Of a DNA stretch of 64,000 nucleotides, positions 6,666 to 35,549 are shown piece by piece. Position 1 is the first letter of the stretch. Each line of letters starts with the position of its first letter. The notes below the pieces were generated by a model. That model was given only the letters and a program-made list of their open reading frames with translations. It was not told the origin of the DNA and ran no database searches. Source of the DNA: an uncultured Planctomycetia bacterium (GTDB taxonomy: Bacteria; Omnitrophota; Gorgyraeia; JABMRG01); assembly GCA_964634945.1 (NCBI GenBank), contig CAZWMG010000008.1, positions 268 to 64,267 on the forward strand, read 5' to 3'. The position numbers and the translations under genes were made by a program.

Positions 6666-6791
6666 GGGCATCCGCGGTGGTAGCTGGAACAACGATGCTA
6701 CGAACTTGCGCGTGTCGGACCGTAACAACGCTGGCAACACGAACACGAATCGGAACAACAATTATGGGTTCCGCCCGGCCAGCACTCCTTG
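6666..6791 (+). repeat. DGR template repeat TR (non-coding, rich in AAC codons)
   Basis: 126 bp collinear with both VRs. The sequence aac aac gat gct acg aac ... aac aac gct ggc aac acg aac acg aat cgg aac aac aat tat is adenine-rich exactly at the positions where the VRs vary. The overlapping ORF 6314-6901 is therefore spurious. Confidence 0.85.
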
Positions 6792-6913
6792 TCAAGAGCG
6801 GGAAACAACGTTGTCATTCTGAGCCCGTAAGGCCGAAGAATCTAAATACTGGATTCTTTACTTCGTTCAGAATGACAAGGGAAAAAGCGCTCAGAATGTG
6901 ACAAGAAGATAAA

Positions 6914-20102: not shown

Positions 20103-20993
20103 ATGATAAAATTTTACACAGGAGATGATATTATATATAAAATCGGCTTATCCTGCTTATCCGCAGGTATATCACGGGCAAGTCTGCCTGTTTTAAAGCA
20201 AGTAAGCTTAAGGTATAGGGCTAAGATAACGGCAATCTTAGTTATTATGCTATCTTTCGTTATTTTATCTCCTGGTAAAAGCCTTTGCGCGCAGGATGAA
20301 GAGCATAGCGTCAGGAAGAGTAAACATTTTATTGTATATTATAGTGAAGTACCGACAGCATACGCTAGCAAGGTAACCAGAAGCGCGGAGCATTATTACA
20401 AGAGCATTATTAATTATTTAGGCTTTAACAGGTTTAACTTTTGGACATGGGAGAAACGCTGTAAGGTTTATCTATATCCTACTCAAGAGCGATATCAGGA
20501 GGCAACGGACGCGGAGCCCTGGTCAACAGGACGAGTACACGTTACCAAGAAGGAGATATCTACTTATGCGGGGAAGGAAGAGTTCCTAGATTATACGCTT
20601 CCTCATGAGATGGGGCACATAATATTTAGAGAAGCCATAGGAACCGATAAGAGCCTGCCTCTATGGATAGACGAAGGCGTAGCGACATTACAGGAGAAGG
20701 ATAGAGAGAAATACCTGCTAACCGCCAAGATGCTTGTAAAGGAAAAGAACTTTATACCATTAAGCGAGCTCTCGAGTATTAGAGGCTATGATGAGATTTC
20801 GCCGGCTCTTTTTTATAGCGAGTCAGCCAGTATAATGGAGTTTTTAATAGAGAAATTTGGCAAGCGAAAATTTGTTTTATTCTGCCACCGTCTTCGAGAC
20901 GGGGAAGGATGGCAAGAGGCGTTATTGCGTACGTATAAGTTTGAGAATTTGGAAGCATTAGAGCGGGCATGGGTAGAGAGTGTGACAGGTTAG
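20103..20993 (+). CDS. Putative zinc metallopeptidase (HExxH; peptidase-MA-like) with an N-terminal TM/signal segment
   Basis: LPHEMGHIIFREA carries the HEMGH motif, followed by a downstream Glu in WIDEGVATLQE. Hydrophobic N-terminal region ITAILVIMLSFVILSP. Confidence 0.55.
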   Translation: MIKFYTGDDIIYKIGLSCLSAGISRASLPVLKQVSLRYRAKITAILVIMLSFVILSPGKSLCAQDEEHSVRKSKHFIVYYSEVPTAYASKVTRSAEHYYKSIINYLGFNRFNFWTWEKRCKVYLYPTQERYQEATDAEPWSTGRVHVTKKEISTYAGKEEFLDYTLPHEMGHIIFREAIGTDKSLPLWIDEGVATLQEKDREKYLLTAKMLVKEKNFIPLSELSSIRGYDEISPALFYSESASIMEFLIEKFGKRKFVLFCHRLRDGEGWQEALLRTYKFENLEALERAWVESVTG

Positions 20994-21167
20994 ATACTAG
21001 ATGCTGGATACTAGATACAAGTAATTTGTATTGTGTATTGAGTGATGCGTATTGCGAAAAATCTTAATGCTATACCTGCCTGCCGGCAGGCAGGCGCGCA
21101 ACGCACGACGCATAACGAAATAAAGGTACAAGGGATAAGTGCAAAAGATAAAGAGGAGATAGGGCAG
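20994..21167. repeat. Composite intergenic repeat element: heptamer tandem, GTATTG octamers, a conserved ~60-nt block and a perfect 20-bp palindrome
   Basis: Heptamer tandem TAGATAC TAGATGC TGGATAC TAGATAC directly after the stop codon. Octamer repeats gtattgtgtattgagtgatgcgtattgcg follow. The block ...aaaaatcttaatgctata...cgcacgacgcataacgaaataaaggtacaagg is also present at 32738-32829. The palindrome cctgcctgccggcaggcagg sits at 21075-21094. Confidence 0.6.
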
Positions 21168-22064
21168 ATGGGCGAAGAATTTAATATGTTGGTGATAGAA
21201 GATGAAGATAGTACATTCAATGTCTTGACCGCGGCATTTAGTGACAAGAAGTATAAGCTCTGGAGGGTAACTACAGGAAAAGAAGCGCTTAATCTGATCA
21301 AGGATATCTATTTTATAGCCGTTATAAGTGAATTACGCATAGCGGATATGGATGGTGTTGAATTTATACAAAAGGCTAAAAAAATAGATTCCCGTACTAA
21401 CGTAATTGTTCTTACGGCTTATTCTTTTGCTGATTCAGCTGTTCAGGCGCTCAAAGCAGGTGCTTACGCGTACGTTTTAAAGCCTCTGAACTTGGAAGAA
21501 CTCAAATTAGTATTAAGGCGATCTATAGAAAATACATGTTTGCTGATACAGGCAGGACGAAAGAAGTATTATCAGGACATGTCCATGTTAGACGGACTAA
21601 CAAGGGTCTATAATCACCGTCATTTTCATGAGGTCCTGGAGTGGCATGTAAACCACATAAGACGGTTTCCGCAGGCCTTCTCCTTGTTTATGATAGATGT
21701 TGATGATTTTAAAAAATATAATGATACCAATGGGCACGTAGAAGGGGACAAGGTCCTGCATAATGTTGCCCAGTTATTAGTGACTCTTACAAGAGACGAT
21801 GATGTAGTCTTTAGATATGGAGGGGAGGAGTTTACCGTGATTATGCCGCAAACGCCCAACCAGCAGGCGCAGATCGCGGGGCAAAGACTAATTGAAGGGG
21901 TAAGGAAACAATCGCCGGTCACGATTAGTCTTGGGCTTAGTACCTTCCCAGATGACGCTCAGGTAAAAAAGGATTTGATTTCGTATGCGGACAAGGCGCT
22001 TTATCGCGCAAAACGATTGGGAAAAGACAGGATGTGTGTCTATGATAAGAATCTGGATCGATGA
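21042..22064 (+). CDS. Response-regulator receiver domain fused to a GGDEF diguanylate cyclase (REC-GGDEF)
   Basis: REC-like N-terminal half (MLVIEDED...ADMDG...VLTAY...LKP). GGDEF domain with RYGGEEF and the DVDDFKKYND motifs. The true start is probably the ATG at 21168 (MGEEFNMLVIEDED), because 21042-21167 is the repeat element. The stop overlaps the atpE start (ATGA). Confidence 0.8.
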   Translation: MMRIAKNLNAIPACRQAGAQRTTHNEIKVQGISAKDKEEIGQMGEEFNMLVIEDEDSTFNVLTAAFSDKKYKLWRVTTGKEALNLIKDIYFIAVISELRIADMDGVEFIQKAKKIDSRTNVIVLTAYSFADSAVQALKAGAYAYVLKPLNLEELKLVLRRSIENTCLLIQAGRKKYYQDMSMLDGLTRVYNHRHFHEVLEWHVNHIRRFPQAFSLFMIDVDDFKKYNDTNGHVEGDKVLHNVAQLLVTLTRDDDVVFRYGGEEFTVIMPQTPNQQAQIAGQRLIEGVRKQSPVTISLGLSTFPDDAQVKKDLISYADKALYRAKRLGKDRMCVYDKNLDR

Positions 22065-22273
22065 AGATATTTAGTATTATCTTAGTGATGTTAATAAGTA
22101 CATTAGGCCCGTCAGGAGTCATAGCGCTGGTTGGTTATGCCAGCGTAAGAGCCTTAGGCAGAAATCCTTCCGCAGCGCCAAAGATCCTGCTCTCTATGAT
22201 TCTGGCTTTTATGTTTGCGGAGACTATAGCTATCATGGGCCTGCTTATTGTTTATAATTTATTTGGAGGATAA
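22061..22273 (+). CDS. atpE: F0 ATP synthase subunit c
   Basis: 70-aa two-helix hairpin protein carrying the loop ALGRNPSAA and the conserved carboxylate in MFAETIAIMGL. Confidence 0.8.
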   Translation: MKIFSIILVMLISTLGPSGVIALVGYASVRALGRNPSAAPKILLSMILAFMFAETIAIMGLLIVYNLFGG

Positions 22274-22278
22274 AATAT

Positions 22279-22412
22279 AAATTCTAAACTCTAAATCCTA
22301 AATTCTAAACAATATCGAATAACCAAAATTTAAATGTTCAAAACAAAGTTTTGAATTTGGAAAATTAGAATTTTGAATTTGTTTAGGATTTAGATATTAG
22401 GATTTAGAACTT
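22279..22412. repeat. Imperfect ~33-bp inverted repeat built from heptamer tandems (AAATTCT-type / TAGGATT-type) flanking an inner palindrome, located between atpE and atpF
   Basis: The left arm aaattctaaactctaaatcctaaattctaaaca and the right arm tgtttaggatttagatattaggatttagaactt are about 80% reverse-complementary. The inner palindrome ttcaaaacaaagttttgaa lies at 22337-22355. Confidence 0.6.
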
Positions 22413-22436
22413 ATTTAAAAGCAAGGAGCTAAAATA

Positions 22437-23171
22437 ATGCCGATTTGGCAGTTGATACTAATACAGTTAGTTACGTTTATCTTTATTATTCTTTTCTTGA
22501 GATGGCTGCTCTCTACCCACATAGGCCATGCTTTAAAAAGGCTGCAGCAGTTGAATCAGCAGAATCTTGAAAAGGAGAAAGCGCTAAAAGAGGAATTAGA
22601 GCGCGCGAAAAGAGAGGTTAAGAGAAAGATCGAAGAAGGCCAGCAACAGGCTGACGAAATAAAAAAGCAAGCACGGGCAGACGCAGAAAAAGATAGAGAA
22701 GGCATATTTAGCAGTGCCAGACAAGAAGCTCAAAGAATGGTTAACGACGCGACAAGAGATTGCCAGAGAAAGAAAGTTGAGCTTACCTCAGAGATGCAGC
22801 AAAAGTCGGTATATTTGGCGACTGATATCATAGGTTATATATTTACAGAACAAAATCAGAAGGATTTGCATCTGAAGCTTATTGACGAGTTAATTGACGA
22901 TATAAAAAAGCTTCAGGAGGATAAGATAAAAGCAGAAGGTGACAAAGCAGAAATTGTCTGTGCCTATGCCTTAAGTGATGGCCAAAGAAAAAAAATGAAA
23001 GAGATATTGTCCTCTAAGATTAAGCGCGACATAGAGTTGATTGAAAGGATAGACAAAGAGATCATAGGGGGACTGGTAGTAAAAATAGGCGGGTTTGTAA
23101 TAGACGGTTCTATAAAAAACAAGCTTAAGAAAATTTTACCAATTTTAAAAGAAAAAGCGAAGACGTTGTAA
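22437..23171 (+). CDS. atpFH: Compact fusion of F0 ATP synthase subunit b with the C-terminal domain of subunit delta
   Basis: N-terminal TM helix and a charged coiled coil match subunit b. The C-terminus EIIGGLVVKIGGFVIDGSIKNKLKKIL matches the delta/OSCP C-terminal motif (..IRAGDMVIDGSVRGRLERL). At 244 aa the delta N-terminal domain is absent. Confidence 0.7.
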   Translation: MPIWQLILIQLVTFIFIILFLRWLLSTHIGHALKRLQQLNQQNLEKEKALKEELERAKREVKRKIEEGQQQADEIKKQARADAEKDREGIFSSARQEAQRMVNDATRDCQRKKVELTSEMQQKSVYLATDIIGYIFTEQNQKDLHLKLIDELIDDIKKLQEDKIKAEGDKAEIVCAYALSDGQRKKMKEILSSKIKRDIELIERIDKEIIGGLVVKIGGFVIDGSIKNKLKKILPILKEKAKTL

Positions 23172-23205
23172 TTCGTTATGCGTCGCGCGCCTGCCCCCCC
23201 GTGCA

Positions 23206-23589
23206 TGTCATTCCTGCGAAAGCAGGAATCCATAGGCACGGGATAAGCTCCAGCAGGAATTCGGAAATAAGATGAAACAGTACTATGTTTACATGCTGGC
23301 AAGCAACAAAAATGGAACACTGTATATTGGCGTTACTAATAACTTGATTAGAAGAATATATGAACATAAAGAAGGTTTAGTAGAAGGCTTTACAAAAAAA
23401 TATAATATAAAACGATTGGTATTTTACGAAGAAACAAATGATGTTGAGAGTGCAATAATTAGAGAGAAGCAGATGAAGAAATGGAAGCGACAATGGAAAA
23501 TTGATTTGATTCAGAAAAATAATTCTGAATGGAAAGATTTGTATAATGAAGTAGTTGGATAGTGGATTCCTGCTTTCGCAGGAATGACA
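23206..23589. mobile_element. Putative mini-element: a GIY-YIG gene bounded by perfect 26-bp inverted repeats, inserted between atpFH and atpA
   Basis: The left IR tgtcattcctgcgaaagcaggaatcc (23206-23231) is the exact reverse complement of the right IR ggattcctgctttcgcaggaatgaca (23564-23589). Each IR is itself a hairpin (attcctgc-gaaa-gcaggaat). Confidence 0.45.
23272..23562 (+). CDS. Small GIY-YIG nuclease-domain protein (UPF0213/YhbQ-like, 96 aa)
   Basis: YYVYMLASNKNGTLYIGVTNNLIRRIYEH matches the GIY-YIG core, with a conserved downstream Glu (VFYEETND) and R/K-rich helices. Confidence 0.8.
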   Translation: MKQYYVYMLASNKNGTLYIGVTNNLIRRIYEHKEGLVEGFTKKYNIKRLVFYEETNDVESAIIREKQMKKWKRQWKIDLIQKNNSEWKDLYNEVVG

Positions 23590-23687
23590 CGGTGTAGGCT
23601 TGCCCCTGTGAAACAGGGGAATGACACGGAGTAGACTTACCTCTGTAAAGCTTGTCCCCGCGAAAGCGGGGAGTAGGGGAATGACAC
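23564..23687. repeat. Array of three hairpin units, each followed by GGAATGACAC, downstream of the GIY-YIG gene
   Basis: Unit 1 is attcctgctttcgcaggaatgacac, unit 2 is cccctgtgaaacaggggaatgacac, and unit 3 is ccccgcgaaagcggggagtaggggaatgacac. The array has no intervening spacers and is not CRISPR-like. Confidence 0.65.
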
Positions 23688-23723
23688 ATGTGACAGGCTG
23701 ATTTCTGGCAAAGGGGAAGAAGG

Positions 23724-25196
23724 TTGATGAATAACTTGAAAATAGCATCTTTAGATATAAAGGATACCGGTACGATACGTGAGATCAGAAAAGGTATCGT
23801 CAAGATAGGCGGCCTACCATCATGCATAAATGGTCAGCTTATTGAATTAGGCTCAAACCTGCTTGGTATGATAATTGGTTTTGAAGGAGATGAAGTTTCC
23901 GCGCTGGTTTTAGGTGATGAGACAAAGCTGAATATTGATGGAACTGTTTATGCTGAGCCGGGAGTTTTTGAAATCCCTGTCGGCAATAATTTTATAGGCC
24001 GTGCTGTAAATGCCTTTGCCAGGCCAACAGATGGAAAAGGCAAGATCGAGGAGAGTGATTTTCGCCCTGTTTTCAGAGATGCGCCGGGTGTAATGGATAG
24101 GACCCCCATTGATGAGTCCATGCTTACCGGGATAAAGACTATTGACACGGTTATCCCCCTGGGTAAAGGCCAGAGGGAGCTTATTATCGGCGACAGGGTT
24201 ACAGGAAAGACTACATTGGCATTGGATACGATTCTAAATCAGAAGGGCAAGGATGTGGTTTGCATATTTTGCTGGATAGGAGGAAGCTTTTCGCCGTTTT
24301 TAAAACTTATTCAGCAGATGCATAGAGACGGAGTTCTGGAGTATAGTATTGTTGTCAGTGCCCTTGCCTCTGATTCTCCCGCGGAACAATACATCGCTCC
24401 TTATACCGCTACTACATTAGGAGAGCATTTTATGTACCAGGGTAGAGATGTTTTACTGGTCTTTGATAATCTTACCAGGCATGCATGGGTCTATCGTCAG
24501 TTATCACTTCTTTTGGAGAGGTGCCCGGGAAGAGAAGCGTATCCAGGGGATATATTTTATCTTCATTCCCAGTTGATGGAGAGAGCGGCAAAACTTAATC
24601 AGGATAACGGCGGCGGTTCAATGACATTTTTGCCGATAGTAGAAACGCAGGAAGGCGATGTTACAGGCATTATTCCATCAAACCTTATTTCAATGACCGA
24701 TGGACAGATATATTTAGATACGGGGCTTTTTTACGACGGATTTAAACCAGCTATCGATTTAGGCCTTTCTGTCTCAAGAATAGGCAGCAAGGTCCAGTGT
24801 GAGGCCATAAGAGAAGTATCAGGACAGTTAAAAGCAGAATATGCCCGGTACAAGGAGCTGGCAGGTTTAACGCGCATAAGAACCAAGCTTTCTCAGGAAG
24901 TAGAATTAAAGATAAAAAAAGGAGAGACCTTAACATTCCTTCTTGGCCAGGATAAATCAAGCCCGCTGACAATAGAGGAGATAATCATTGTTTTTTATGC
25001 TTTTGATAAAGGCATTCCCGAAATATTAGATGAGGCAAAAAGAGATAAATTTAAGAATGGTATATATGCGTATATATTAAAGGAGTATCCTGATCTGATA
25101 GGAAAGCTTGCCAGCCAGAAAGCATTGACAGAAGAGATAAAGATTTTATTGGACGAGGCATTCCAGAAATTTTTTACTGAAACCAGTGGCTTGTAA
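23724..25196 (+). CDS. atpA: F1 ATP synthase alpha subunit
   Basis: Walker A GDRVTGKTTLALDTILNQKG and an alpha-type architecture. The start is probably the ATG at 23727. Confidence 0.9.
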   Translation: MMNNLKIASLDIKDTGTIREIRKGIVKIGGLPSCINGQLIELGSNLLGMIIGFEGDEVSALVLGDETKLNIDGTVYAEPGVFEIPVGNNFIGRAVNAFARPTDGKGKIEESDFRPVFRDAPGVMDRTPIDESMLTGIKTIDTVIPLGKGQRELIIGDRVTGKTTLALDTILNQKGKDVVCIFCWIGGSFSPFLKLIQQMHRDGVLEYSIVVSALASDSPAEQYIAPYTATTLGEHFMYQGRDVLLVFDNLTRHAWVYRQLSLLLERCPGREAYPGDIFYLHSQLMERAAKLNQDNGGGSMTFLPIVETQEGDVTGIIPSNLISMTDGQIYLDTGLFYDGFKPAIDLGLSVSRIGSKVQCEAIREVSGQLKAEYARYKELAGLTRIRTKLSQEVELKIKKGETLTFLLGQDKSSPLTIEEIIIVFYAFDKGIPEILDEAKRDKFKNGIYAYILKEYPDLIGKLASQKALTEEIKILLDEAFQKFFTETSGL

Positions 25197-25259
25197 AGAG
25201 TAGGGCCTGTGAGTTTTAAGCAAACGGGAAAAAATTTGTCATAAATGAGAATTTAAACT

Positions 25260-26123
25260 ATGTTTAAATTAAATATGTTACGCAAGGAATTGATTTTTAA
25301 TCAGGACATAGGTGATATAATCAATGTCTTAAAAGGTGTTGCCTCTTCCGAATTTTATCGTCTCCAGAAGGAAAAGAAAAGTTTTGATGAATTTCTGGAT
25401 TATCTCCAGAGATTTTTTAGTATGGTAGATACTACAGGTTTGCGCCATCTTTTATTGGATGATTCTTCTTTGCCACAGGCCTTGGTGCTTATAACATCTG
25501 ATCTGGGTTTTTTGGGAAAGCTCAATGTATCTGTGGTCAATACAGCTTTAGAACAATCCTCAAAAGATGATGAATTGATCGTTGTTGGCAAGCAGGGCAT
25601 CAGATATATAGAGGAGTCAGGCAGAAATTTTACCGCTTTTGAAGGTATCACAGACGAAGTAGAATACAAAGAGGCGGATAAGCTGGCAGATTGTGTTCTT
25701 AAGGGTATTCTGGATAAGAAGTTTTGTAGAACCACTATAATATATCCACACTTTATATCATTTGCTGTTTGGAAAGTACAAACCTATCAGCTTTTTCCGT
25801 GCAGATTTTTATTCCAGGCAGGCACAAAGTCTGGACAGAAGCATGAGGAAGGCAGTATTATTATTGAACCAACTTTAGCAAAGATAGCAGAACGCTTGAT
25901 AAAGATATGGATAAATTATACCTTATACGGGATTTTTTGGGAAAGTAAACTTTCCGAGTGGGCAACGCGCGTTATGCACTTGGAAGGCAGTACGCATGAG
26001 ATTAAACAGATGAACAAGAAATTGCGTTCTCAATATTTTCGTCTTATACATGAAATTAGTGATAAGAATATAAGAGAAATTTTTGCGGCTAGACTTGCCT
26101 TGGAGCAAGAAGCGGTAGCGTGA
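25260..26123 (+). CDS. atpG: F1 ATP synthase gamma subunit
   Basis: Sits between alpha and beta. The N-terminal helix LRKELIFNQDIGDIINVLKGVASSEF and the C-terminal helix IREIFAARLALEQEA are typical of gamma. Confidence 0.7.
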   Translation: MFKLNMLRKELIFNQDIGDIINVLKGVASSEFYRLQKEKKSFDEFLDYLQRFFSMVDTTGLRHLLLDDSSLPQALVLITSDLGFLGKLNVSVVNTALEQSSKDDELIVVGKQGIRYIEESGRNFTAFEGITDEVEYKEADKLADCVLKGILDKKFCRTTIIYPHFISFAVWKVQTYQLFPCRFLFQAGTKSGQKHEEGSIIIEPTLAKIAERLIKIWINYTLYGIFWESKLSEWATRVMHLEGSTHEIKQMNKKLRSQYFRLIHEISDKNIREIFAARLALEQEAVA

Positions 26124-26172
26124 TTCTAGATACTAGATTCTGGATGCAAGATGCTAGGCATAAGGAGCAAGA

Positions 26173-27585
26173 GTGAAGAAGGAAGAAGCGAAAAAGGTAC
26201 AAAAAGGCAAGGTTATCGCGGTCCAGGGGCCTATAGTTATCGTAAGGTTTGAACCTAGCCCCCTAAAGGCCGCTATCTATGATATCTTAGAGACAACGAC
26301 TTACAACGGCCAGAGAGTAGTGCTGGAAGTGGTAGAGTATGTGAGCGAAAAGGCTAATGTTATCAGCAATGTCGTTAAATGTATACCATTAACATCCATC
26401 TTTGGTTTACAGAAAAACGCCGAAGTTTCCAACACAGGTTCTATGATTAATACCCCTGTAGGAGAAAAGGTATGCTCAAGGATATTAAATGTATTAGGTG
26501 AGCCAATAGATAAAAAGGGCCCTATAGACACGAAATTGAAGAGGCCTGTGCGCAGGAGAGAGAGCGCTAGCTTGAATATAGATAAGGCCAGAGAGATGCG
26601 TTTCGAGGTAATGGAGACAGGAGTAAAAGTAATCGATCTTCTCTTCCCATTGGTAAAAGGAGCAAAAACAGGAATATTAGGCGGCGCGGCTCTTGGCAAG
26701 AGCGTATTGATGCTGGAGCTTATGCACAACATTATTAGAAAGCAAAAAGGTTTTTGTGTTTTTACGGGAGCCGGAGAGAGAGTCAGAGAGGGTAACGAGC
26801 TTTATAATGAGATGTTAAAGCAGGATATATTAAGCAGATCGATCCTGGTCTATGGGCAGATGAACGAATCTCCCGGTGCGAGATTTGAGGTCGCCCATAC
26901 CGGCGTTACCTTGGCGGAATATTTTCAAGAGAAAAACGAAGATGTTTTATTCTTTATTGATAGTGTTTATAGATTTGCACAGGCAGGAAGCGAGCTATCT
27001 ACCTTGTTGGGCAGAATCCCTTCTGAAACAGGTTATCAACCCACTTTAACTTCAGAGATGAGTGAATTTCAGGAGAGGATTCGTTCGGGAAGTAACGCGG
27101 CTATTACGGCTATTGAGGCGGTTTATGTTCCGAGTGACGATTTAACAGATCCGGCGGTTGTCTGCATATTTAGCTATTTAGAGTCCATACTTATTCTTTC
27201 TCGTGAATATGTGCAGATGGGTTTTCACCCTGCTATTGATCCCTTGCTATCCTCCAGTTCTTATTTGGATCCGATAATTATAGGCAAGAGGCATTTTAAT
27301 GTTGCGCAGGATGTCCTAAGGATTCTTAATAAATATGAAGAATTAAGAAGGATAGTTTCTATCGTCGGAGTAGAAGAACTTTCAAAGGAAGATAGAATAT
27401 TGTTTGAAAGGGCGCGGAGAATGCAAAATTTTCTTACCCAGCCATTTTTTACCGCGGAACTTTATACAGGTAAGAGTGGAGAGTATGTGTCTTTGGAAGA
27501 AACTTTAATCGGCTGCGAGAAGATAATATCCGGTGAAATGGATAAAAAATTACCCGAAGACCTATACATGATAGGAGCATTATAA
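26173..27585 (+). CDS. atpD: F1 ATP synthase beta subunit (variant P-loop GGAALGKS)
   Basis: N-terminal beta-barrel [15 protein letters not shown]. The P-loop is [14 protein letters not shown] rather than the canonical [26 protein letters not shown] and the DELSEED-region analogue are present. Confidence 0.9.
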
Positions 27586-27734
27586 TTCGTTATGCGTTGT
27601 GCGCCTGCCTATTGGCGAGACAGGTATTGCGCATCATGTAAAATTTTTAACGCAATACACAATACGATATACGCAATACGAATTAAGCACAACACAATAC
27701 ACAATACACAATACGAAAAAGAGAGAGGCAAACA
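27586..27734. repeat. Intergenic repeat region: a conserved 27-mer after the atpD stop plus an octamer array CAATAC(A/G)C x~9
   Basis: taattcgttatgcgttgtgcgcctgcc also follows the atpFH stop at 23169-23197. The octamer array acgcaatacacaatacgatatacgcaatacgaattaagcacaacacaatacacaatacacaatacg lies at ~27650-27718. Confidence 0.6.
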
Positions 27735-29480
27735 ATGGCGATAAAAGTCGGAGAGATGCTTGTTAGTAAAAAACTTATCACGGCTGAACAACTACAACTA
27801 GTTTTACAGGAGCAGCACAAAACAGGCGAATTGTTAGGCCAGACTTTAAACAGAATGGGCTACATGGCTGAGGATCAATTTTTATTGGTGCTCTCCGAGC
27901 AACTCAATATTCCGTTTATTAAATTGCAGGATGTTGATATTGACACTGAAGCTATAAAGAAGTTGCCGCCTAAGTTCGCGTGGCATTACAAGATAATGCC
28001 TATTAGTTTGTCCGATGGAAAACTTACTGTAGCTACTTTTGATCCCTTAAGCTCCTTAAATGATGTAGAAAAGTTTTTAGGATGCGAGGCTGTCCCTGTC
28101 TTGGCAACGGAGAGCGATTTGATAAAGGCGATAGAAAAATATTATGGAGTTGGCGCGGAGACCATAGAAAAGATTATCGCCGCGGCGCCAAGAGAGAGTG
28201 TAGCTGTAGATACGGATAAAGAAGTAACAGATATAGAGAAGATGGCAGGAGACGCGTCAGTAGTTAAATTAGTAAATCAGGTAATAGTTGAGGCTTACCA
28301 GAAGAGAGCTACTGATATCCATTTAGACCTTTTTAGAAACAAGCTGAGCCTGCGATATCGTATTGATGGGATACTTTATCCGGCTAATACATCAGAAGAT
28401 ATGGTGCGATTTTTTCCGGCGATTATATCTCGTATTAAGATAATGTCTAACCTGAACATCGTAGAGCGTCGTCTCCCCCAGGACGGCCGCGCTGTAGTAA
28501 AGATAGGAGATATGGAACTTGACTTAAGAATATCGATTATACCTACACGCTATGGCGAGGGGCTGGTAATAAGGATACTGCCTACAAAGATGCTTTTTAG
28601 CTTAAAGGGCCTTGGGCTGCAAGATGCAGAATTAAAGGTGCTGGAATCGCTTATATACAAACCGCACGGTATAATTTTTGCTACAGGGCCCACAGGAAGT
28701 GGAAAGACTACTACATTATACGCATGTCTTAATAAGATAAAAAGCACAGAGAACAAGATAATTACATTAGAGGATCCTATAGAATATGAACTTGAAGGGA
28801 TAACGCAGATTCAGGCTATGCCTGAGATTGGGCTTACTTTCGCTGCCGGTTTAAGAAGCGTATTAAGGCATGACCCTGATGTCATGATGGTTGGAGAGGT
28901 AAGAGACTTTGAAACAGCGGAATTAGCTATCAGGATTGCCTTGACGGGTCACTTGATCTTTTCTACGGTACATACTAATGACGCCGCGGGCGGCGTAACA
29001 AGATTGCTTGATATGGGGGTTGAGCCGTTTTTGATAACATCCTCTGTGAGAGGTTTTATCGCGCAAAGGCTCTTAAGAGTCATCTGTCCTGATTGCAAGG
29101 AAGAGGACACATCAATAGGAGACGAGATCAGAAAACAGATAGTCCGGGAGATAGCGGAGTTTCGCCCGTTTTATCGTAAAAATCCTAAGCTATATAAAAA
29201 GTTTGTTGACCTCAAGGAATCTGATATCCATTTTTACAGGGGTAAAGGCTGCGAGGCATGCAACTTTAATGGTTTTAGAGACAGGACAGCCATATATGAG
29301 ATATTGGTAGTTAACAAGGCTATAAAAGAATTGATATTGAAAAAAGTATCTACGGATATCATACGAGATGAAGCGGTAAAGCAAGGTATGAAGACTCTTC
29401 GATTGGCTGGATGGGAAAGAGTTATTGAGGGCACTACAACGCCTGACGAGGTAATAAGAATTACACAGATTGAGGAATAA
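27735..29480 (+). CDS. gspE: Type II secretion / type IV pilus assembly ATPase (GspE/PilB family) with a T2SSE N-terminal domain
   Basis: N-terminal GspII_E-like domain (LVSKKLITAEQLQLVLQEQ...). Walker A GPTGSGKTT, the Asp box and Walker B are present, along with the tetracysteine motif CPDC....CEAC. Confidence 0.9.
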   Translation: MAIKVGEMLVSKKLITAEQLQLVLQEQHKTGELLGQTLNRMGYMAEDQFLLVLSEQLNIPFIKLQDVDIDTEAIKKLPPKFAWHYKIMPISLSDGKLTVATFDPLSSLNDVEKFLGCEAVPVLATESDLIKAIEKYYGVGAETIEKIIAAAPRESVAVDTDKEVTDIEKMAGDASVVKLVNQVIVEAYQKRATDIHLDLFRNKLSLRYRIDGILYPANTSEDMVRFFPAIISRIKIMSNLNIVERRLPQDGRAVVKIGDMELDLRISIIPTRYGEGLVIRILPTKMLFSLKGLGLQDAELKVLESLIYKPHGIIFATGPTGSGKTTTLYACLNKIKSTENKIITLEDPIEYELEGITQIQAMPEIGLTFAAGLRSVLRHDPDVMMVGEVRDFETAELAIRIALTGHLIFSTVHTNDAAGGVTRLLDMGVEPFLITSSVRGFIAQRLLRVICPDCKEEDTSIGDEIRKQIVREIAEFRPFYRKNPKLYKKFVDLKESDIHFYRGKGCEACNFNGFRDRTAIYEILVVNKAIKELILKKVSTDIIRDEAVKQGMKTLRLAGWERVIEGTTTPDEVIRITQIEE

Positions 29481-29736
29481 GAAAAAAGTCATGTTCCCTA
29501 TATCTATTCTTGATACAAAGACCACGGCCACTATCTTAAAAGGCATGGCTTCGTGCGTTATATTGCCCGGTGAAGAAGGCGAGCTCTCTATAATGGATTT
29601 CCACCAGCCGATAATAGCTTGCCTGAAAGAGGGGACAATCCAAATAGATAATTCCGATTCTATCCGCATTAAAAAAGGGATTGCGCGAATGGAAGGTAAC
29701 GAGCTTTCAGTTCTAGTGGAAAAGTCAGAAAAATAA
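29470..29736 (+). CDS. atpC: F1 ATP synthase epsilon subunit, N-terminal beta-sandwich domain only
   Basis: VILPGEEGELSIMDFHQPIIACLKEGTIQI....GIARMEGNELSVLVE follows the epsilon pattern V.V.G.EGELGI..GH.PL...L..G...I.......GG.LEV..N.V.VLA. The C-terminal helical hairpin is missing. The probable start is the ATG at 29491, which overlaps or abuts the gspE 3' end. Confidence 0.7.
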   Translation: MRNKKKVMFPISILDTKTTATILKGMASCVILPGEEGELSIMDFHQPIIACLKEGTIQIDNSDSIRIKKGIARMEGNELSVLVEKSEK

Positions 29737-29771: not shown

Positions 29772-31016
29772 ATGACAAAATTTAATTACGAAGCAAAAAA
29801 AGGCCCAAAAGAGATTGTTAACGGAACAATTGAGGCAGATACCCAGGAAGCCGCGGTAGACAAGCTGAATCAGATGGGGTATATGCCTATTAGTGTTGTT
29901 CCTGCCGGCAAGGAGACGCCTGAAAAGAATGCTGATGCAAAGGATAAGGATAAAAAGGCCATTCAGCCATTATTGCCGGGCAAGGTCCGCTCTAAGGACC
30001 TTACTATATTTATAGAACAACTTGCCAGCTTGATTAAATCCAAAGTGCCTATATTGGAGGCGATAGAGGTCCTTCATGAGCAGATAGAGAGCCCGGCTTT
30101 ACGAAAAATAATATTGCATATCCAAGCTGAGGTGAGAGAAGGGAAAACATTATCCCATGCTCTCAGTAGATATCCGAAAGTTTTTCCTTTGTTGTATGTC
30201 AACATGATTGAGTCCGGAGAAGCGGGAGGCGTGCTTGAAAAGACTCTTATGCGGCTGGCTGAGTTTAGAAACAAGGAAGAGGAGACAAGGGCCAAAATAG
30301 TTTCAGCTTTGGCTTATCCGATCTTTATCATAATAGTCGGAATAGTTACTATATTTGCCTTATTTATTTTTGTTATCCCACGGATGACCTCTCTCTTTGG
30401 TGAAATGGGGCAAACCATGCCTTTACCAACCAGGATGCTACTGGCAATGAGTAATCTGGTTAGGAGTTATTGGTATTGGATACTCGCGGCAGTTGCGGGC
30501 ATGATGTTTATGGTCAAGCGAAGTGGAAAAAATAAGAATGAAAAGATTGTTCTGGATAGACTAAAGATTCAATTACCACTTATTGGAAATTTTATAAGGA
30601 AGACGTTAATAGCGGAGTTTTCTCGCACATTTGCCCTCCTTCTTGCTAATGGTATACCTATATTGCAGGCGATAAAGATAACTATACCAACTTTGAGCAA
30701 CGAAGTCTTTAAGAATGAGTTGAAAACAGTGCATAAGAATATAATTGATGGAATGAGTCTGGAGCAGAGCATGAAAAAGTCACAATGGTTTCCGCGTTTT
30801 ATGACTAATATGCTTGCCGTAGGTGAGAGAGGAGGCAATCTGGAAGAGGCGTTATTGGATGTAGCTAAATTTTATGAGAGGGAAGTTGATAAGACAACTA
30901 AGATTATAACCTCCCTGCTCGAGCCGGCGATAATCTTAGTGACAGGGCTTATAGTCGGATTTATTGTATTTGCCATGCTCTTACCGATATTCCAGCTGAA
31001 TTTTGGAGTGAACTAA
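29772..31016 (+). CDS. gspF: Type II secretion / type IV pilus inner-membrane platform protein (GspF/PilC)
   Basis: Two T2SSF repeats with 3 TM helices. Family motifs SHALSRYPKVFPLLYVNMIESGEAGG and NMLAVGERGGNLEEAL. Confidence 0.85.
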   Translation: MTKFNYEAKKGPKEIVNGTIEADTQEAAVDKLNQMGYMPISVVPAGKETPEKNADAKDKDKKAIQPLLPGKVRSKDLTIFIEQLASLIKSKVPILEAIEVLHEQIESPALRKIILHIQAEVREGKTLSHALSRYPKVFPLLYVNMIESGEAGGVLEKTLMRLAEFRNKEEETRAKIVSALAYPIFIIIVGIVTIFALFIFVIPRMTSLFGEMGQTMPLPTRMLLAMSNLVRSYWYWILAAVAGMMFMVKRSGKNKNEKIVLDRLKIQLPLIGNFIRKTLIAEFSRTFALLLANGIPILQAIKITIPTLSNEVFKNELKTVHKNIIDGMSLEQSMKKSQWFPRFMTNMLAVGERGGNLEEALLDVAKFYEREVDKTTKIITSLLEPAIILVTGLIVGFIVFAMLLPIFQLNFGVN

Positions 31017-31038: not shown

Positions 31039-31449
31039 ATGATGCTATTAAACCATCGCAAAAAGAAGGCCTTTACCTTAGTCGAGCTTTTATTGGTTGT
31101 AGTTATACTTGGCGCGTTAGCAGCCATGATAGTGCCAAGACTCGTTGGCCGCACGGAGCAGGCAAAGGTTTCTATTGCCAAAGCGGATATTACCTCTAAT
31201 ATACCATTAGCATTAGATCTCTACGAATTGGATAATGGTAAATACCCAACTACTATTCAGGCGCTTATCTCTAACCCGGGCGGGTTAAAGAGCTGGAACG
31301 GCCCTTACGCTAAAAATGATCCTATAGACCCTTGGGGCAATGAGTATAAATATAGATATCCATCTTCCCATGGTAAGGACTATGATTTGTATTCGTTAGG
31401 CCCGGATGGAGTAGAAGGCACAGATGATATTACAAATTGGAAGAAGTAA
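31039..31449 (+). CDS. gspG: Major pseudopilin (GspG-like) with a prepilin leader and an N-methylation motif
   Basis: Leader MMLLNHRKKKA followed by FTLVELLLVVVILGALAAMIVP. GspG-type globular domain: ALDLYELDNGKYPTT....GPY...DPWGNEY.Y..P...G.DYDLYSLGPDGVEGTDDITNW. Confidence 0.85.
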   Translation: MMLLNHRKKKAFTLVELLLVVVILGALAAMIVPRLVGRTEQAKVSIAKADITSNIPLALDLYELDNGKYPTTIQALISNPGGLKSWNGPYAKNDPIDPWGNEYKYRYPSSHGKDYDLYSLGPDGVEGTDDITNWKK

Positions 31450-31984
31450 TATTGTTGTGTGCATAACAGCAAGAGTTTTTTCACGCAATACGCAATACCT
31501 GCCTCGCCAATGTACTTTGCGCAAAGTCGCCGGCAAGGCGGGCCTGCCTTACCGACAGGCGGGCGCAATACGCAATACGAGAAAGGCTTTCACATTAATT
31601 GAAGTAATGCTGAGCGTAGCCATTTTATCAGTCGCCCTCGTTATGATACTGCAGGCGTTTGCGCATTCTCTAAATATATTACGTATAACGGAAGATAACC
31701 TAACCGGGACCTTGCTAGCCGGTAATAAGATGGCAGAAGCGCAGATACTGGCTAAAGGAGACTGGAGTGGTTTTGAAAATGGGGTGGATGAGAAATTTAA
31801 ACTTGATGATATCAAGTGTGATTGGGAGATTGACGTAACCCCTGTCGAGTTTGATACAGAGGAAGCCTCTGAGGGAGGCGAAACCTTGAATGAGGTCAAT
31901 GCTTTATTGTCATGGGAAGAGGGAAAGAGAAAAGGCGCTATCCCCCTCGCTACATATATGAGGAGCTTTAGCAGAGATAGATGA
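31424..31984 (+). CDS. Minor pseudopilin (GspI-like). The start codon is uncertain and is probably a non-ATG start within 31490-31560
   Basis: The prepilin cleavage/methylation motif KAFTLIEVMLSVAILSVAL begins at nt 31586. The annotated ATG would give a 54-aa leader that overlaps the repeat region. The 3' end overlaps the next gene (ATGA). Confidence 0.55.
   Translation: MILQIGRSNIVVCITARVFSRNTQYLPRQCTLRKVAGKAGLPYRQAGAIRNTRKAFTLIEVMLSVAILSVALVMILQAFAHSLNILRITEDNLTGTLLAGNKMAEAQILAKGDWSGFENGVDEKFKLDDIKCDWEIDVTPVEFDTEEASEGGETLNEVNALLSWEEGKRKGAIPLATYMRSFSRDR
31449..31585. repeat. Intergenic/5' repeat: CAATACGCAATAC octamer pairs flanking a GC-rich segment and a 14-bp palindrome actttgcgcaaagt
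   Basis: cacgcaatacgcaatacctgcc...actttgcgcaaagt...ggcgggcgcaatacgcaatacg. It overlaps the annotated 5' end of the next pseudopilin ORF. Confidence 0.55.
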
Positions 31985-32703
31985 ATAACCCTGTTGAAGT
32001 TTCCATGCCATACTTTGCGCGAAAGAAGAATTACGCGTTTACATTAATAGAGATCCTTGTAAGCGTAACCATAGTTTCTTTGGTAGGTGTAGCGCTATAT
32101 TCTATATTCGCAAATGGGATAAACGCCTGGCGCAAGGGCAGCGAAAATAAAGACTATGCGCGAAAGATAAGACTTGTCTCCGAAAAGATGACCGGTGAGA
32201 TAAGAAATGTCTTTGAATTCTCTATGATCGCTTTTGAGGGTGAAGAAGATTTTTTTATGTTTCCGGCCCTGATACCGACAACAGAGGATCAAGACGGGGA
32301 TATGATTACAGAATATTCTCAGGTAGGAAGAATAGCGTATTTTTATGACAATAAAAAAGACGCGTTTTGCAAAGAAGTTAGGACCTTGCCTGAGGCCCTT
32401 AATGAAGAGGAGATAGGTGACGGCGAGGTGCTGATAGAAGGCGTTAGCGGATTAGAAATAAATTATTGCTATCTTGATAACTTATCAGGTGAATATAAGT
32501 GGAAAGAAGACTGGAACAAGGAAGAACAGGATAGCATGCCACAGGCGTTAAGTGTCAAAATCTCTTTTAAGAAAGACGTAATGAAGAATGATGAGTTTAA
32601 TAAAACAGTATTTATTCCAATGGGGACGGGCGAGCAAAAAATGGACGCAGGTAGCGTTACACAGCAAATAGAAGAAGATGGGGTAGATGATGATGGATAC
32701 TAG
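31981..32703 (+). CDS. Minor pseudopilin (GspJ/GspH-like)
   Basis: N-terminal NYAFTLIEILVSVTIVSLVGVAL methylation motif and TM helix. Confidence 0.6.
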   Translation: MNNPVEVSMPYFARKKNYAFTLIEILVSVTIVSLVGVALYSIFANGINAWRKGSENKDYARKIRLVSEKMTGEIRNVFEFSMIAFEGEEDFFMFPALIPTTEDQDGDMITEYSQVGRIAYFYDNKKDAFCKEVRTLPEALNEEEIGDGEVLIEGVSGLEINYCYLDNLSGEYKWKEDWNKEEQDSMPQALSVKISFKKDVMKNDEFNKTVFIPMGTGEQKMDAGSVTQQIEEDGVDDDGY

Positions 32704-32829
32704 ATACTGGATGCTGGATGCAAGAAGAAAGGTTACAAGTAATTCGTATTGCGTGATACGTGATGTGTATTGCAAAAAATCTTAACGTTATATGCACGAC
32801 GAACGACGAAACAAAGGCACAAGGTCAAT
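32692..32829. repeat. Composite intergenic repeat element, paralogous to 20994-21167
   Basis: Heptamer tandem TAGATAC TGGATGC TGGATGC after the stop, then gtaattcgtattgcgtgatacgtgatgtgtattgcaaaaaatcttaacgttatatgcacgacgaacgacgaaacaaaggcacaagg. It lacks the 20-bp palindrome insert. Confidence 0.6.
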
Positions 32830-33855
32830 ATGATAATTAGGAGTAAGACAGCGAGTATATTGATCCTTACTCTTTGGATGGTGAGTTTTCTAACTATCTT
32901 TGTTGTCGGGCTCGGATATAAGGTGTCAGGCCAATTGCGCTTAGCCTCACATATGCAGGATAGGCTAAAGATGTACTATCTAGCTAAGGCAGGCATAGAG
33001 AGGGCAACTATCCGATTTGTTATGGATGAGACGCCTAAATGTACGAGTTTGGATGAAGAGTGGTCAAATAGTGAAGATTTTTTTAAAGAGGCACCTCTCG
33101 GTGACGGATATGTAACGGTTAGCTACCAGTTAGAAAATGAAATTGATGGCAAGGAGTCAACAGAAGACGTAGTTATGTATGGGTTAGTCGATGAGAATAG
33201 CAGGATAAATATAAACACGACCCCGCTTCAGATACTTAAAAACATGATCGAGAGTACAGATGAAGCCGAGACGGAAGAGGTCTCTGATATTGCTAACGCC
33301 ATTCTTGATTGGAGGGATAGAGATGTTATTCTCTCTCCCGGTGGCGCAGAGAATGAATATTACGAGGGGCTCGAACTGCCCTATTCATGCAAGAACGACG
33401 ATTTTCAGGTTGCCGAAGAGTTATTGCTGGTAAAAGGTGTGACTCCGGATATCTTTTTAAAGCTTTCTGATATAATCACGGTTTATGGCGAAGGCAAGGT
33501 CAATATTAACACAGCAGATTGGCGTACGTTTTACGCGATGGGACTAAGCAGTGATCTTGCAGAGAGAATAGTTCAATTTCGCAGAGGTGAAGATGATATA
33601 GATGGGACAGAAGATGACAATGTTTTTAATACCGTTGCGGAAATAAGAAACATTGGGTCATTGTTTACTGAGGAAGCGGAAGAGATAAACAGCCTTGTTT
33701 CTAGCAATGCGCTTACAGTACAATCAAATATTTTTAGGATTAACTCAGAAGGTATTATTCAAAAAGGTGATTATAGCATAAAGCGAAGTGTAGTTAGCGT
33801 GGTAGAAATAGTCCCTAATGAGAGCCCCAAGACGCTTTATTGGCATGAGTACTAA
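32830..33855 (+). CDS. gspK: GspK-like minor pseudopilin with two helix-hairpin-helix (NINTA) motifs
   Basis: TM helix ASILILTLWMVSFLTIFVVGL. Two motifs INININTTPLQILKNMI and VNINTADWRTFYAMGLSSDLAERIVQFR are typical of GspK. The start is taken at the ATG at 32830, because the track start at 32770 lies in the repeat element. Confidence 0.7.
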   Translation: MIIRSKTASILILTLWMVSFLTIFVVGLGYKVSGQLRLASHMQDRLKMYYLAKAGIERATIRFVMDETPKCTSLDEEWSNSEDFFKEAPLGDGYVTVSYQLENEIDGKESTEDVVMYGLVDENSRININTTPLQILKNMIESTDEAETEEVSDIANAILDWRDRDVILSPGGAENEYYEGLELPYSCKNDDFQVAEELLLVKGVTPDIFLKLSDIITVYGEGKVNINTADWRTFYAMGLSSDLAERIVQFRRGEDDIDGTEDDNVFNTVAEIRNIGSLFTEEAEEINSLVSSNALTVQSNIFRINSEGIIQKGDYSIKRSVVSVVEIVPNESPKTLYWHEY

Positions 33856-34031: not shown

Positions 34032-35549
34032 ATGAAGTTATCATTTGTAAGAAAAAACCCGATTATGACTGTCTTGGAAATAGATGGCGATTGGCTTAAA
34101 ATAGTGCAGGTTAAGCCGTCAAGAAAAGAGAGTAAGATAGTTAGGATTGTAGTTGAGAAGATGCTACCTGACTCAGACGATAAGGCCCCTGATCGTATCA
34201 CAGCGCTACTTAAAGAGCTAAAAATAAATCCAAATCTTTTAACAGTATCAATACCGCATCAGCTTGTAGTTATTAAAAATCTCGAATTACCTTCCGTGAA
34301 TCCTGTGGAGGTAAAAGATATGGTCGAACTGCAGATAGGCAAGCAGACGCCTTTTACAAAGGACGAGATAATCTATGATTATGAGATAGTCAGTACTAAC
34401 GCGGAAGGTTACAGCAGGATCATATTGGTTATTGTCCATCAGGATGTTGTTCGGTCGAGCTTAAAAACATTAGAAAAGGCAGGGCTTAAGACGGAGAAGG
34501 TCTCTTTAAGCTCCGAAGGATTGTTTGCCTGGTACAAAGTCGCCTCCAAGGAAGAGGTTACTGACCAGCCATATGCTCTTATAGACGTAGATTATGACAA
34601 GAGTGATTTTATAGTTGTCTTAAAAGGGAAAGTTATATATTACAGAAATATATCCATAGGTTTTTTGCAGTCAATAGAAGCGCTTGAGAAATGGCACGCG
34701 AAGTTTATCGAGGAGATAAATCATTCTATATATGCTTATCATAGTGAGATGATAAACGAGGAGATCGCAAAGATCGTTATAACCGGGGCTAAAATGCTTA
34801 GCGGCAGCCTGAACAAGGATGTTCTAAAAGCTGTAGTTGGCCTGCCCGTCGATATTATACCTCAGATAGAGAACGCCCCATTAACAGATAAATGCCTTAA
34901 GGAATATGGCGAGATAACAAAAGATGTCTCTCTTTCCTGTCTTTTTGGCTTAGGGCTTAATCCTGACGGGGCAAGGATTAATCTTATACCGCAGCAACTG
35001 CAGATAGAGAAAGGGGTAAGGGAGAAGGGCAGAGACTTATACCTTTTTGGTATCTATTTAGCGTTTATTCTGGCAACAGCTTCAAGTATTTTTTTAGGTA
35101 GGCTCTATACAAAAGAGCAGTATCTAGGGGAATTAAAGCAGCAGGTTTCCAAAGTTCAGCACAAGATCAGCAGAATAAATGATATGATAGATGAGACAGA
35201 GGGCATAAAGATGCGCAGTAGCACCAGAAACCTTATGCTTAATTTTATCTTTGAAAAACACAGGGTTATTCCCCCGGACATATATTTAACATCAATTCGC
35301 TTTAATGGGAAGGACCGCCTGACTATTCGCGGGGCATCACCGGTTATGTCAGAGATATTTACTTTTGTTAACGTATTGGAGGAGTCAAAATATTTCCAGG
35401 ATGTTAAGACAAAGTTTGTTACGACCCGTAGCGTAAAGGGCAAAGATCTGACGGAATTTGAGATAATCTGCCCTTTAGATAATAGTCTTGAGGAAGCGTT
35501 AATCCTGTTGGATAACAGCCAATCAGGCGAACAAGAAGAAGATCGATGA
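34032..35549 (+). CDS. PilM-like actin-fold domain fused to a TM segment and a PilN/GspL-like periplasmic domain
   Basis: N-terminal ~300 aa have the PilM/GspL cytoplasmic-domain pattern (VLEIDGDWLKIVQV...). A TM helix LYLFGIYLAFILATASSIFLG at ~aa 335 is followed by a coiled-coil periplasmic part. Confidence 0.5.
   Translation: MKLSFVRKNPIMTVLEIDGDWLKIVQVKPSRKESKIVRIVVEKMLPDSDDKAPDRITALLKELKINPNLLTVSIPHQLVVIKNLELPSVNPVEVKDMVELQIGKQTPFTKDEIIYDYEIVSTNAEGYSRIILVIVHQDVVRSSLKTLEKAGLKTEKVSLSSEGLFAWYKVASKEEVTDQPYALIDVDYDKSDFIVVLKGKVIYYRNISIGFLQSIEALEKWHAKFIEEINHSIYAYHSEMINEEIAKIVITGAKMLSGSLNKDVLKAVVGLPVDIIPQIENAPLTDKCLKEYGEITKDVSLSCLFGLGLNPDGARINLIPQQLQIEKGVREKGRDLYLFGIYLAFILATASSIFLGRLYTKEQYLGELKQQVSKVQHKISRINDMIDETEGIKMRSSTRNLMLNFIFEKHRVIPPDIYLTSIRFNGKDRLTIRGASPVMSEIFTFVNVLEESKYFQDVKTKFVTTRSVKGKDLTEFEIICPLDNSLEEALILLDNSQSGEQEEDR

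Follow-up and report, generated by a model that had tools for sequence, protein, structure and literature searches.

The F-type ATPase genes carried by a 64,000-nt stretch of contig CAZWMG010000008.1 (hereafter, the window) form, together with genes for a type II secretion system (T2SS)/type IV pilus (T4P)-like machine, a single cluster that is conserved across the phylum Omnitrophota and that contains no gene for the a subunit. The present analysis suggests that this ATPase is probably not the ATP synthase of the cell. We favor, at a probability of a little over one half (about 0.55), the view that the cluster is of the type reported in Omnitrophota by Seymour et al. (2023, Nat Microbiol, PMC10066038) and encodes a hydrolyzing accessory F-type motor for the T2SS/T4P-like machine, with a V-type enzyme responsible for ATP synthesis and with cyclic di-GMP (c-di-GMP) gating the system. 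The co-location of ATPase and pilus or secretion genes in this phylum is already known, having been reported in 2023; the subunit-level anatomy of the cluster and its c-di-GMP link seem to be undescribed.

Organization and conservation of the cluster

Gene calls were made from an open reading frame (ORF) map combined with Pfam and NCBIfam profile searches of the window proteins. On the plus strand these give the order REC-GGDEF, c, b-delta (carrying the C-terminal part of delta), GIY-YIG, alpha, gamma, beta, GspE, epsilon, GspF (Table 1), followed, according to Pfam, by GspG-like, N-methyl pilin, GspJ-like, and GspK-like pseudopilins, a PilM-PilN fusion, and PilO. The TGA stop codon of the GGDEF gene and the ATG of the c-subunit gene overlap by 4 nt (ATGA), 149 nt separate the stop codon of atpD (beta) from the start of gspE, and the epsilon gene (atpC) lies between gspE and gspF. 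The original prediction, made from the sequence alone, had read this same order from REC-GGDEF to gspF, including the ATGA overlap and the position of gspE between atpD and atpC, and both the profile searches and, for gspE, the relatives described below agree with it. Misassembly, which it had named as a possible source of the layout, is excluded, because contigs assembled independently from several sequencing runs carry the identical order.

Judged by its proteins, the source organism is a member of the Omnitrophota near Candidatus (Ca.) Orphnella; the nearest homologs of beta and b-delta, where named, are almost all from Ca. Orphnella occulta or Ca. Omnitrophota. The loci compared with the window came from a closed 1.55-Mb Omnitrophota chromosome, a 1.99-Mb contig, and 36 further species-representative genomes found with the b-delta alignment, and were annotated by comparison with the window proteins, with a flank of up to 10 kb on each side. 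The order is the same in the closed chromosome, where beta is 75% identical to the window beta, and in the 1.99-Mb contig, where it is 70% identical, and it is near-invariant across ∼36 other Omnitrophota species-level genomes, rearranged variants included. The consensus runs from a giant surface protein, with or without a 246-aa module (c246), through an MA-peptidase, REC-GGDEF, c, b-delta, alpha, gamma, beta, GspE, epsilon, and GspF to GspG, -H, -J, and -K, PilMN, and PilO. In every locus with enough sequence to tell, GspE follows beta. Three loci (L006, L037, and L038) are rearranged to b-delta, peptidase, c, and in two others (L015 and L033) the upstream genes are shuffled, with the linkage of the ATPase to the T2SS genes kept in each. 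Even in the distant L042 and L043, whose b-delta proteins are 32 to 36% identical, the change is that epsilon stands ahead of c, and L043 retains beta, GspE, and GspF together.

All genes of the cluster lie on one strand, and the intergenic gaps in relatives measure 1 to 76 nt; in many species GspE and epsilon are separated by 3 to 7 nt and epsilon and GspF by 1 nt, and the 4-nt overlap of the GGDEF and c genes is kept in 20 loci. Because this tight interleaving persists through rearrangements across the phylum, it points to a functional linkage of the two sets of genes. The layout is that of a conserved phylum-wide cluster and not a peculiarity of one reduced genome, to which the original prediction had tied it. 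Of the accompanying proposal that energy and pilus machinery are cotranscribed, the cotranscription is plausible in view of the single strand and the short gaps in relatives, whereas the description as energy machinery is probably wrong. A promoter and terminator scan gave counts no different from those of shuffled sequence, terminator-like sites being no commoner, a result that says nothing firm on operon boundaries, and an Rfam scan of the window revealed no riboswitch near the cluster, a single tRNA being its sole match.

The GIY-YIG gene is a small mobile cassette that has been inserted into the cluster and is not part of the machine, in line with the earlier reading of it as an insertion. 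Perfect 27-nt inverted repeats, both containing a hairpin, flank its 96-aa ORF, and the gene occupies the position upstream of alpha in close relatives only; in L005 a GIY-YIG match is found elsewhere, after PilO. It is this restricted position, together with the perfect inverted repeats, that identifies it as a mobile insertion. In addition, the window contains a short interspersed intergenic repeat, consisting of a ATTCGTTATGCGTYGYGCGCCTGCC core and then ACACAATAC-type tandem units, at 21021-21122 (minus strand), 23166-23195 (plus strand), and 27580-27718 (plus strand), that is, upstream of the GGDEF gene and directly after the stop codons of b-delta and beta, where none would be expected by chance. 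It is because of these repeats that the gaps in this genome are unusually long compared with those in its relatives.

Two further observations concern the compared loci themselves. In L035 a gap of ∼3.4 kb separates gamma from beta and may be an insertion within the ATPase cluster. Several contigs with the cluster (L019, JAIWAR010000001.1; L008, L010, L015, L023, and others) were deposited either as "Methanosarcinales archaeon," in the case of an 87-kb contig, or as "uncultured Planctomycetia/Planctomycetales," labels that probably reflect errors of binning or labeling. The Methanosarcinales label is of note in that V. archaeovorus has been reported in association with Methanosaeta.

Subunits, secretion partner, and the absence of an a-subunit gene from the cluster

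The absence of an a-subunit gene is a family-wide property of the cluster taken with its flank of up to 10 kb per side. A hidden Markov model (HMM) built from 40 sequences, namely 39 a subunits from control operons and the Escherichia coli probe, found no a gene in any of 44 Omnitrophota loci (the window and 43 others), even at E <= 10. Of 41 non-Omnitrophota atp operons fetched as controls in the same scan, 39 gave an a gene with this model, located beside the genes for the other subunits. Pfam gave no ATP-synt_A match among the window ORFs of at least 110 aa, which cover all main plus-strand genes, and a tblastn search with E. coli AtpB found no match. A divergent a subunit hidden in the cluster was rejected as an explanation, since profile scans, tblastn, and HMM were all empty, and the intergenic gaps, which are too short and filled with repeats, were ruled out as the home of such a gene. 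The c246 protein was also considered and rejected as a candidate: it carries a signal peptide plus one transmembrane (TM) helix at its C-terminal end and, in some species, is itself the C terminus of the giant protein.

By the conservation of its motifs, the F1 head looks catalytically competent. The beta P-loop (GGAA.GKS), catalytic Glu, and Walker B regions are conserved, as are the alpha P-loop (GDRVTGKT) and Arg finger (LSVSR), in alignments of 28 to 31 orthologs. Gamma is full-length but divergent. Epsilon is devoid of the inhibitory C-terminal helices in 25 of 25 sequences; it is typically 78 to 81 aa long, vs. a median of 140 aa in the controls, and aligns to positions 10 to 81 of the 130-position TIGR01216 model. 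Of its two possible starts, ATG 29491 is favored by gene callers and homologs, and TTG 29470 is possible. Sequence comparison also makes the family far more divergent from housekeeping F1 than the housekeeping F1 of different phyla are from one another: the median identity of alpha to canonical alphas of other phyla is 41%, vs. 57% among the canonical ones, and beta is 46% identical to canonical betas, vs. 64%. Gamma, epsilon, c, and b-delta all fall under their NCBIfam equivalog cut-offs.

The peripheral stalk is a single protein that combines subunit b with only part of delta. PF00430 matches residues 7 to 132 and PF00213 residues 146 to 233, the latter aligned at profile positions 82 to 168 of 172 only, which corresponds to the delta C-terminal domain with no delta N-domain. 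The stalk family comprises 161 proteins; among the matches listed, lengths range from 197 to 262 aa and nearly all are 242 to 262 aa. An AlphaFold2 model (pLDDT 87.6) predicts a single helix of ∼135 residues that leads into a small alpha/beta domain, and in Foldseek searches this modeled C-domain superposes on the delta/OSCP C-terminal domain at 1.1 to 1.5 Å. Over the whole chain the best Foldseek matches are to V-ATPase subunit E (TMq 0.47 to 0.49), with a weak match to FliH (5b0o_F, E 0.018), and the best NCBIfam model is that of the N-ATPase AtpF (TIGR03321), to which residues 4 to 233 align at positions 5 to 241 of 246, with 71 bits vs. a cut-off of 225.

In canonical bacterial F-type ATP synthases the delta N-domain grips the N-terminal tail of alpha. 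Both partners of this contact are absent here: alpha starts 8 to 14 residues before the point that aligns to PDB residues 21 to 30 of solved alphas and so has no N-terminal tail, a difference of roughly 13 to 20 residues. The joint loss of the delta N-domain and the alpha tail points to a different stator attachment, one that would resemble that of subunit E or FliH. Thus the profile, model, and structure searches agree with the original prediction on the absence of an a gene adjoining atpE, on a 244-aa protein joining b to the C-terminal domain of delta alone, on the beta P-loop GGAALGKS, and on 29470-29736 as an epsilon homolog limited to the beta-sandwich (PF02823, E 3.9e-12), albeit with better support for the ATG start. 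The stator fusion that it described as nonstandard is real, and in its compact form it has a precedent in the AtpF of N-ATPases.

Among the proteins of the set, the c subunit is the most conserved (median identity between family members, 81%), and its RNP loop and TM2 carboxylate (a Glu, in the context FAE) show no variation in any of the 36 sequences. Its TM1 has no GxGxGxG motif, and its score lies far under the NCBIfam equivalog cut-offs.

On the secretion side, Pfam matches were obtained to T2SSE, T2SSF, T2SSG, T2SSJ, T2SSK, PilM, PilN, and PilO/T2SSM. GspE and GspF are below the NCBIfam equivalog cut-offs, and no secretin (GspD) family match was found in window ORFs of at least 110 aa. 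Judged by these NCBIfam and Pfam profiles, the partner system looks more like a T2SS than a type IVa pilus (T4aP) system. The MshE-type c-di-GMP motif of GspE scores above its NCBIfam cut-off, and the N-terminal sequence of GspE is conserved in the family. In the GGDEF protein the GGEEF signature is invariant, and the phospho-acceptor position of the REC domain (21168-21650) is apparently Glu, not Asp, in all 26 orthologs aligned, so that this domain may be a phosphorylation-independent pseudoreceiver. Together, the invariant GGEEF, the receiver Glu, and the MshE-type motif suggest a regulatory layer in which c-di-GMP likely connects the GGDEF protein with GspE by way of the MshEN motif of the latter.

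Function of the ATPase and comparison with known systems

Seymour et al. (PMC10066038) reported that many Omnitrophota encode a "non-respiratory" F-type ATPase adjoining T4aP clusters, with ATPase and T4aP genes within 10 kb of each other in 57 of 66 contigs and with such loci in every class; they called the cluster "symbiotic" and suggested that it has a role in attachment to, or motility on, host cells. The locus described here is of the same kind. It belongs to an Omnitrophota genome, its divergent F-type alpha and beta genes lie <10 kb from T4P/T2SS-type genes, its alpha is distinct from housekeeping alphas, a giant ORF is nearby, and it too appears to be nonrespiratory. That report gives an alpha phylogeny and the co-location within 10 kb, and the available portions of its main text and supplements make no mention of a missing a gene, a retained c subunit, the b-delta(C) fusion, an epsilon gene between gspE and gspF, or a GGDEF-MshEN link. 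The label "type 2/3" used there is not supported by profile scores or gene content, alpha scoring 539 bits against canonical atpA vs. 384 against MMOB1660 and 297 against MSC_0619. West-Roberts et al. (2023) described T2SS-like loci beside giant genes. In Ace Lake, a V-type ATP synthase was the bioenergetic enzyme of all Omnitrophota studied, Ca. Orphnella occulta included (Williams et al., 2021), and a 2026 preprint covering 176 complete genomes found V/A-type subunits in most Gorgyraeia and called the F1F0 set incomplete. The strong divergence of the family, the lack of an a gene in all 44 loci, the V-type ATP synthase reported in relatives, and the "non-respiratory" assignment in the literature are the reasons for which we consider that the cluster ATPase is probably not housekeeping energy machinery.

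Several known ATPases share part of this anatomy. The N-ATPases (atpDCQRBEFAG; PMC2881411) likewise have no separate delta gene, and their AtpF of ∼246 aa consists of b and the C-terminal part of delta, an arrangement that Dibrova et al. (2010, PMC2881411) compared to the V-type subunit E and FliH; they were argued not to synthesize ATP. However, N-ATPase operons have an a gene, AtpQ, and AtpR in a fixed and different order, with no link to secretion genes. Membership in this group was rejected, as the scores are under the cut-offs of the N-ATPase models (507 vs. 750 for alpha and 492 vs. 752 for beta, with b also far below), the gene order differs, and there is no a gene; the stalk architecture alone matches. 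No intergenic gap is long enough for a further gene of the size of an a gene, AtpQ and AtpR not having been searched for specifically.

The Type 2 and Type 3 "F1-like X0" ATPases of mycoplasmas (Beven et al., 2012, PMC3369863; Berlureau et al., 2026, PMC12994834) are also extra, divergent F1-type ATPases with no canonical Fo a subunit, and they serve host interaction, either in gliding or in the MIB-MIP antibody-cleavage system. Their seven-gene clusters, in contrast, encode alpha-, beta-, gamma-, and epsilon-like subunits and three unrelated proteins, with no c or b-delta. Membership in these types was rejected as well, given that c and b-delta are present here and that the scores lie below the profile cut-offs, both for the gliding models (alpha vs. 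MMOB1660, 384, cut-off 600; beta vs. MMOB1670, 400, cut-off 850) and for the Type 3 models (alpha vs. MSC_0619, 297, cut-off 520; beta vs. MSC_0618, 389, cut-off 570). The beta of the solved mycoplasma G1-ATPase gave 316 bits, vs. 386 to 470 for ordinary F1 betas.

The FliH-FliI-FliJ complex offers a parallel in that homologs of rotary ATPases serve an export machine and that FliH has been proposed to combine a b-like segment with a delta C-terminal segment, like the stalk protein of the window. It differs in that FliI is a homohexamer, there is no c-ring and no epsilon, and the partner is a type III secretion system, whereas the partner here is T2SS/T4P-like; moreover, the stalk protein gave no match to the FliH family in Pfam (E <= 0.1). 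Mycobacterial AtpFH similarly joins b and delta in one polypeptide, and its delta C-domain superposes on the modeled one at 1.1 to 1.4 Å with 34 to 39% identity, but it is a protein of ∼445 aa with a complete delta, N-domain included, encoded in a normal atpBEFHAGDC operon. With AtpFH and the AtpF of N-ATPases as precedents, the b-delta fusion is not a novelty in itself. Set against a canonical F0F1 enzyme, the cluster retains the alpha and beta equivalog scores, the catalytic residues, and the c carboxylate; it does not have an a subunit (within the cluster), a separate b and two-domain delta, the alpha tail, or a two-domain epsilon.

Three parts of the favored proposal are inferences, namely the direction in which the enzyme works, its physical connection with the T2SS platform, and the circuit based on c-di-GMP. 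The F1 head would run in the direction of hydrolysis, as an accessory motor or energizer of the secretion or pilus machine, and the V-type enzyme would handle chemiosmotic ATP synthesis. Such a bias toward hydrolysis is suggested by intact catalysis in combination with an epsilon that has no inhibitory domain, a cluster with no a gene, and a separate V-type enzyme in relatives. The stator would be a compact stalk like the V-type subunit E, FliH, or N-ATPase AtpF, attached without a delta N-domain, and c-di-GMP made by the translationally coupled GGDEF protein would probably gate the system through the MshEN motif of GspE. We further consider possible, at a clearly lower probability and only tentatively, that the F-type ATPase truly has no a subunit and that its F1 head, c-ring, and compact stalk are a physical part of the T2SS/T4P-like nanomachine, docking via the TM helix of b or the c-ring on GspF, PilMN, or PilO.

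Certain findings weigh against an accessory motor of this kind. In the c subunit the ion-binding Glu is maintained by very strong purifying selection, and b has not lost its TM helix. The simplest explanation for these features is a functional ion-coupled Fo, for which an a subunit or something in its place is required; they argue for an a gene elsewhere or for an unrelated membrane partner. Alpha and beta exceed the NCBIfam equivalog cut-offs of canonical atpA (TIGR00962; 539 bits, cut-off 484) and atpD (TIGR01039; 534 bits, cut-off 463). Furthermore, the absence of an a subunit is established only for the cluster plus at most 10 kb on either side, and synteny that is conserved inside one phylum can partly reflect inheritance and not function.

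These points are the basis of a rather unlikely, if serious, alternative, in which the cluster encodes a genuine ion-coupled F-type ATP synthase or ion pump whose atpB lies elsewhere, the adjacency to the T2SS genes being an inherited operon merger with no coupling between the two. Other bacteria are known to have split atp operons, the genes in question are scored as F-type ATPase in KO-based surveys, and the equivalog scores, the intact catalytic residues, the RNP loop and carboxylate of c, and the TM anchor of b are all what such an enzyme would have. However, the a gene is missing within 10 kb in 44 loci, vs. 39 of 41 control operons in which it was found, and the linkage to GspE and GspF outlasts several independent rearrangements. 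Strong divergence from housekeeping enzymes, loss of the epsilon regulatory domain, delta N-domain, and alpha tail, and the V-type ATP synthase reported in these lineages argue in the same direction. We regard as less probable still, and as quite improbable overall, that the F1-c-b-delta assembly is ion-coupled through a nonhomologous membrane protein of the cluster (GspF, PilMN, PilO, or c246), so that ion-motive force, instead of or besides ATP, drives the pilus or secretion machine. The invariant TM2 Glu of c in a cluster with no a gene would be accounted for in this way, several conserved membrane proteins are coencoded, and the mycoplasma "F1-like X0" enzymes provide a precedent for a membrane sector replaced by unrelated proteins. 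This explanation is entirely inferential, though, and no candidate with a conserved midmembrane arginine was identified, the sole Arg common to the two c246 sequences compared being at the membrane boundary. Finally, the joining of an atp operon to a T2SS operon by an assembly or binning artifact has nothing in its favor and a vanishingly small probability, the same layout being present in independent sequencing runs, the closed 1.55-Mb chromosome, the 1.99-Mb contig, and ∼36 species.

If the ATPase does work with the secretion or pilus apparatus, as we favor, it would be a rare rotary F-type motor, c-ring included, that has been redeployed beyond ion-coupled ATP synthesis, and it would afford a view of how rotary ATPases are recruited into export machines, as has been suggested for the ATPase complex of type III secretion. 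It would be relevant, too, to the ways in which ultra-small Omnitrophota attach to host cells or prey on them. Should the ATPase prove to be a physical component of the nanomachine, a rotary ATPase would have been recruited a second time, and independently, into a filament or secretion machine, and the cluster ATPase would be a living analog of the step thought to have yielded FliH, FliI, and FliJ, with the c-ring still attached.

Neighboring genes and mobile elements

The gene for the giant surface protein is the first gene of the conserved supercluster (Table 1). Most related loci whose flank is long enough have a very large same-strand ORF immediately before the cluster; L005 is an exception, its large upstream gene being on the opposite strand. 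The c246 gene is conserved, and in some species (L020, L025, and L040 positions 1-7867) it is fused to the C terminus of the giant protein, which suggests the split or fusion of one gene. The MA-peptidase is likewise conserved in the cluster and is found between the b-delta and c genes in some species.

Table 1. Coordinates of the cluster genes and their immediate neighbors in the window
Feature	Position	Strand	Evidence
Giant surface protein, 3367 aa, LVIVD repeats and Big_1 domain	8004..18107	+	Pfam
c246, 246 aa, signal peptide and C-terminal TM helix	18259..18999	+	
Zinc metalloprotease, Peptidase_MA_2, HEMGH motif, membrane-anchored or secreted	20103..20993	+	
REC-GGDEF diguanylate cyclase; likely start ∼21168	21042..22064	+	Pfam
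F-type c subunit, 70 aa	22061..22273	+	PF00137
b-delta peripheral-stalk protein, 244 aa	22437..23171	+	PF00430 and PF00213
GIY-YIG cassette including inverted repeats; 96-aa ORF at 23272-23562	23206..23589	+	
F1 alpha	23724..25196	+	Pfam, NCBIfam
F1 gamma	25260..26123	+	Pfam, NCBIfam
F1 beta, P-loop GGAALGKS	26173..27585	+	Pfam, NCBIfam
GspE/PilB-type assembly ATPase, N-terminal MshEN-type c-di-GMP-binding motif (residues 5-56)	27735..29480	+	Pfam, NCBIfam
F1 epsilon, beta-sandwich domain only, 81 aa; alternative TTG start 29470	29491..29736	+	PF02823, E 3.9e-12
GspF/PilC platform protein	29772..31016	+	Pfam, NCBIfam
Four pseudopilin genes: GspG-like, N-methyl pilin, GspJ-like, GspK-like	31039..33855	+	
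PilM-PilN fusion (GspL analog) and PilO (GspM analog), inner-membrane assembly platform	34032..36106	+	

Downstream of PilO, at 36122-38332, lies a gene for an AsmA/DUF748-like protein of 736 aa, which is present in the window and in L001 and is not found in L005 or L006. An IS200-like Y1 transposase with a C-terminal helix-turn-helix is encoded at 19068-19988, between the giant-protein module and the peptidase, and has a homolog on the opposite strand in L005 and L015.

A diversity-generating retroelement occupies 732-7957, upstream of the giant-protein gene. Its targets, at 732-2039 and 4722-6077, are two paralogous genes whose products each have an FGE-sulfatase (C-type lectin fold) domain at the C terminus; bAvd is encoded at 6112-6474 and the reverse transcriptase at 6914-7957. 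Between the two targets, the 126-nt variable regions (1913-2038 and 5951-6076) do not differ, and they share 85% identity with a template-like copy at 6666-6791. A gene of the 23S-rRNA-IVP family lies inside this region, at 4315-4689.

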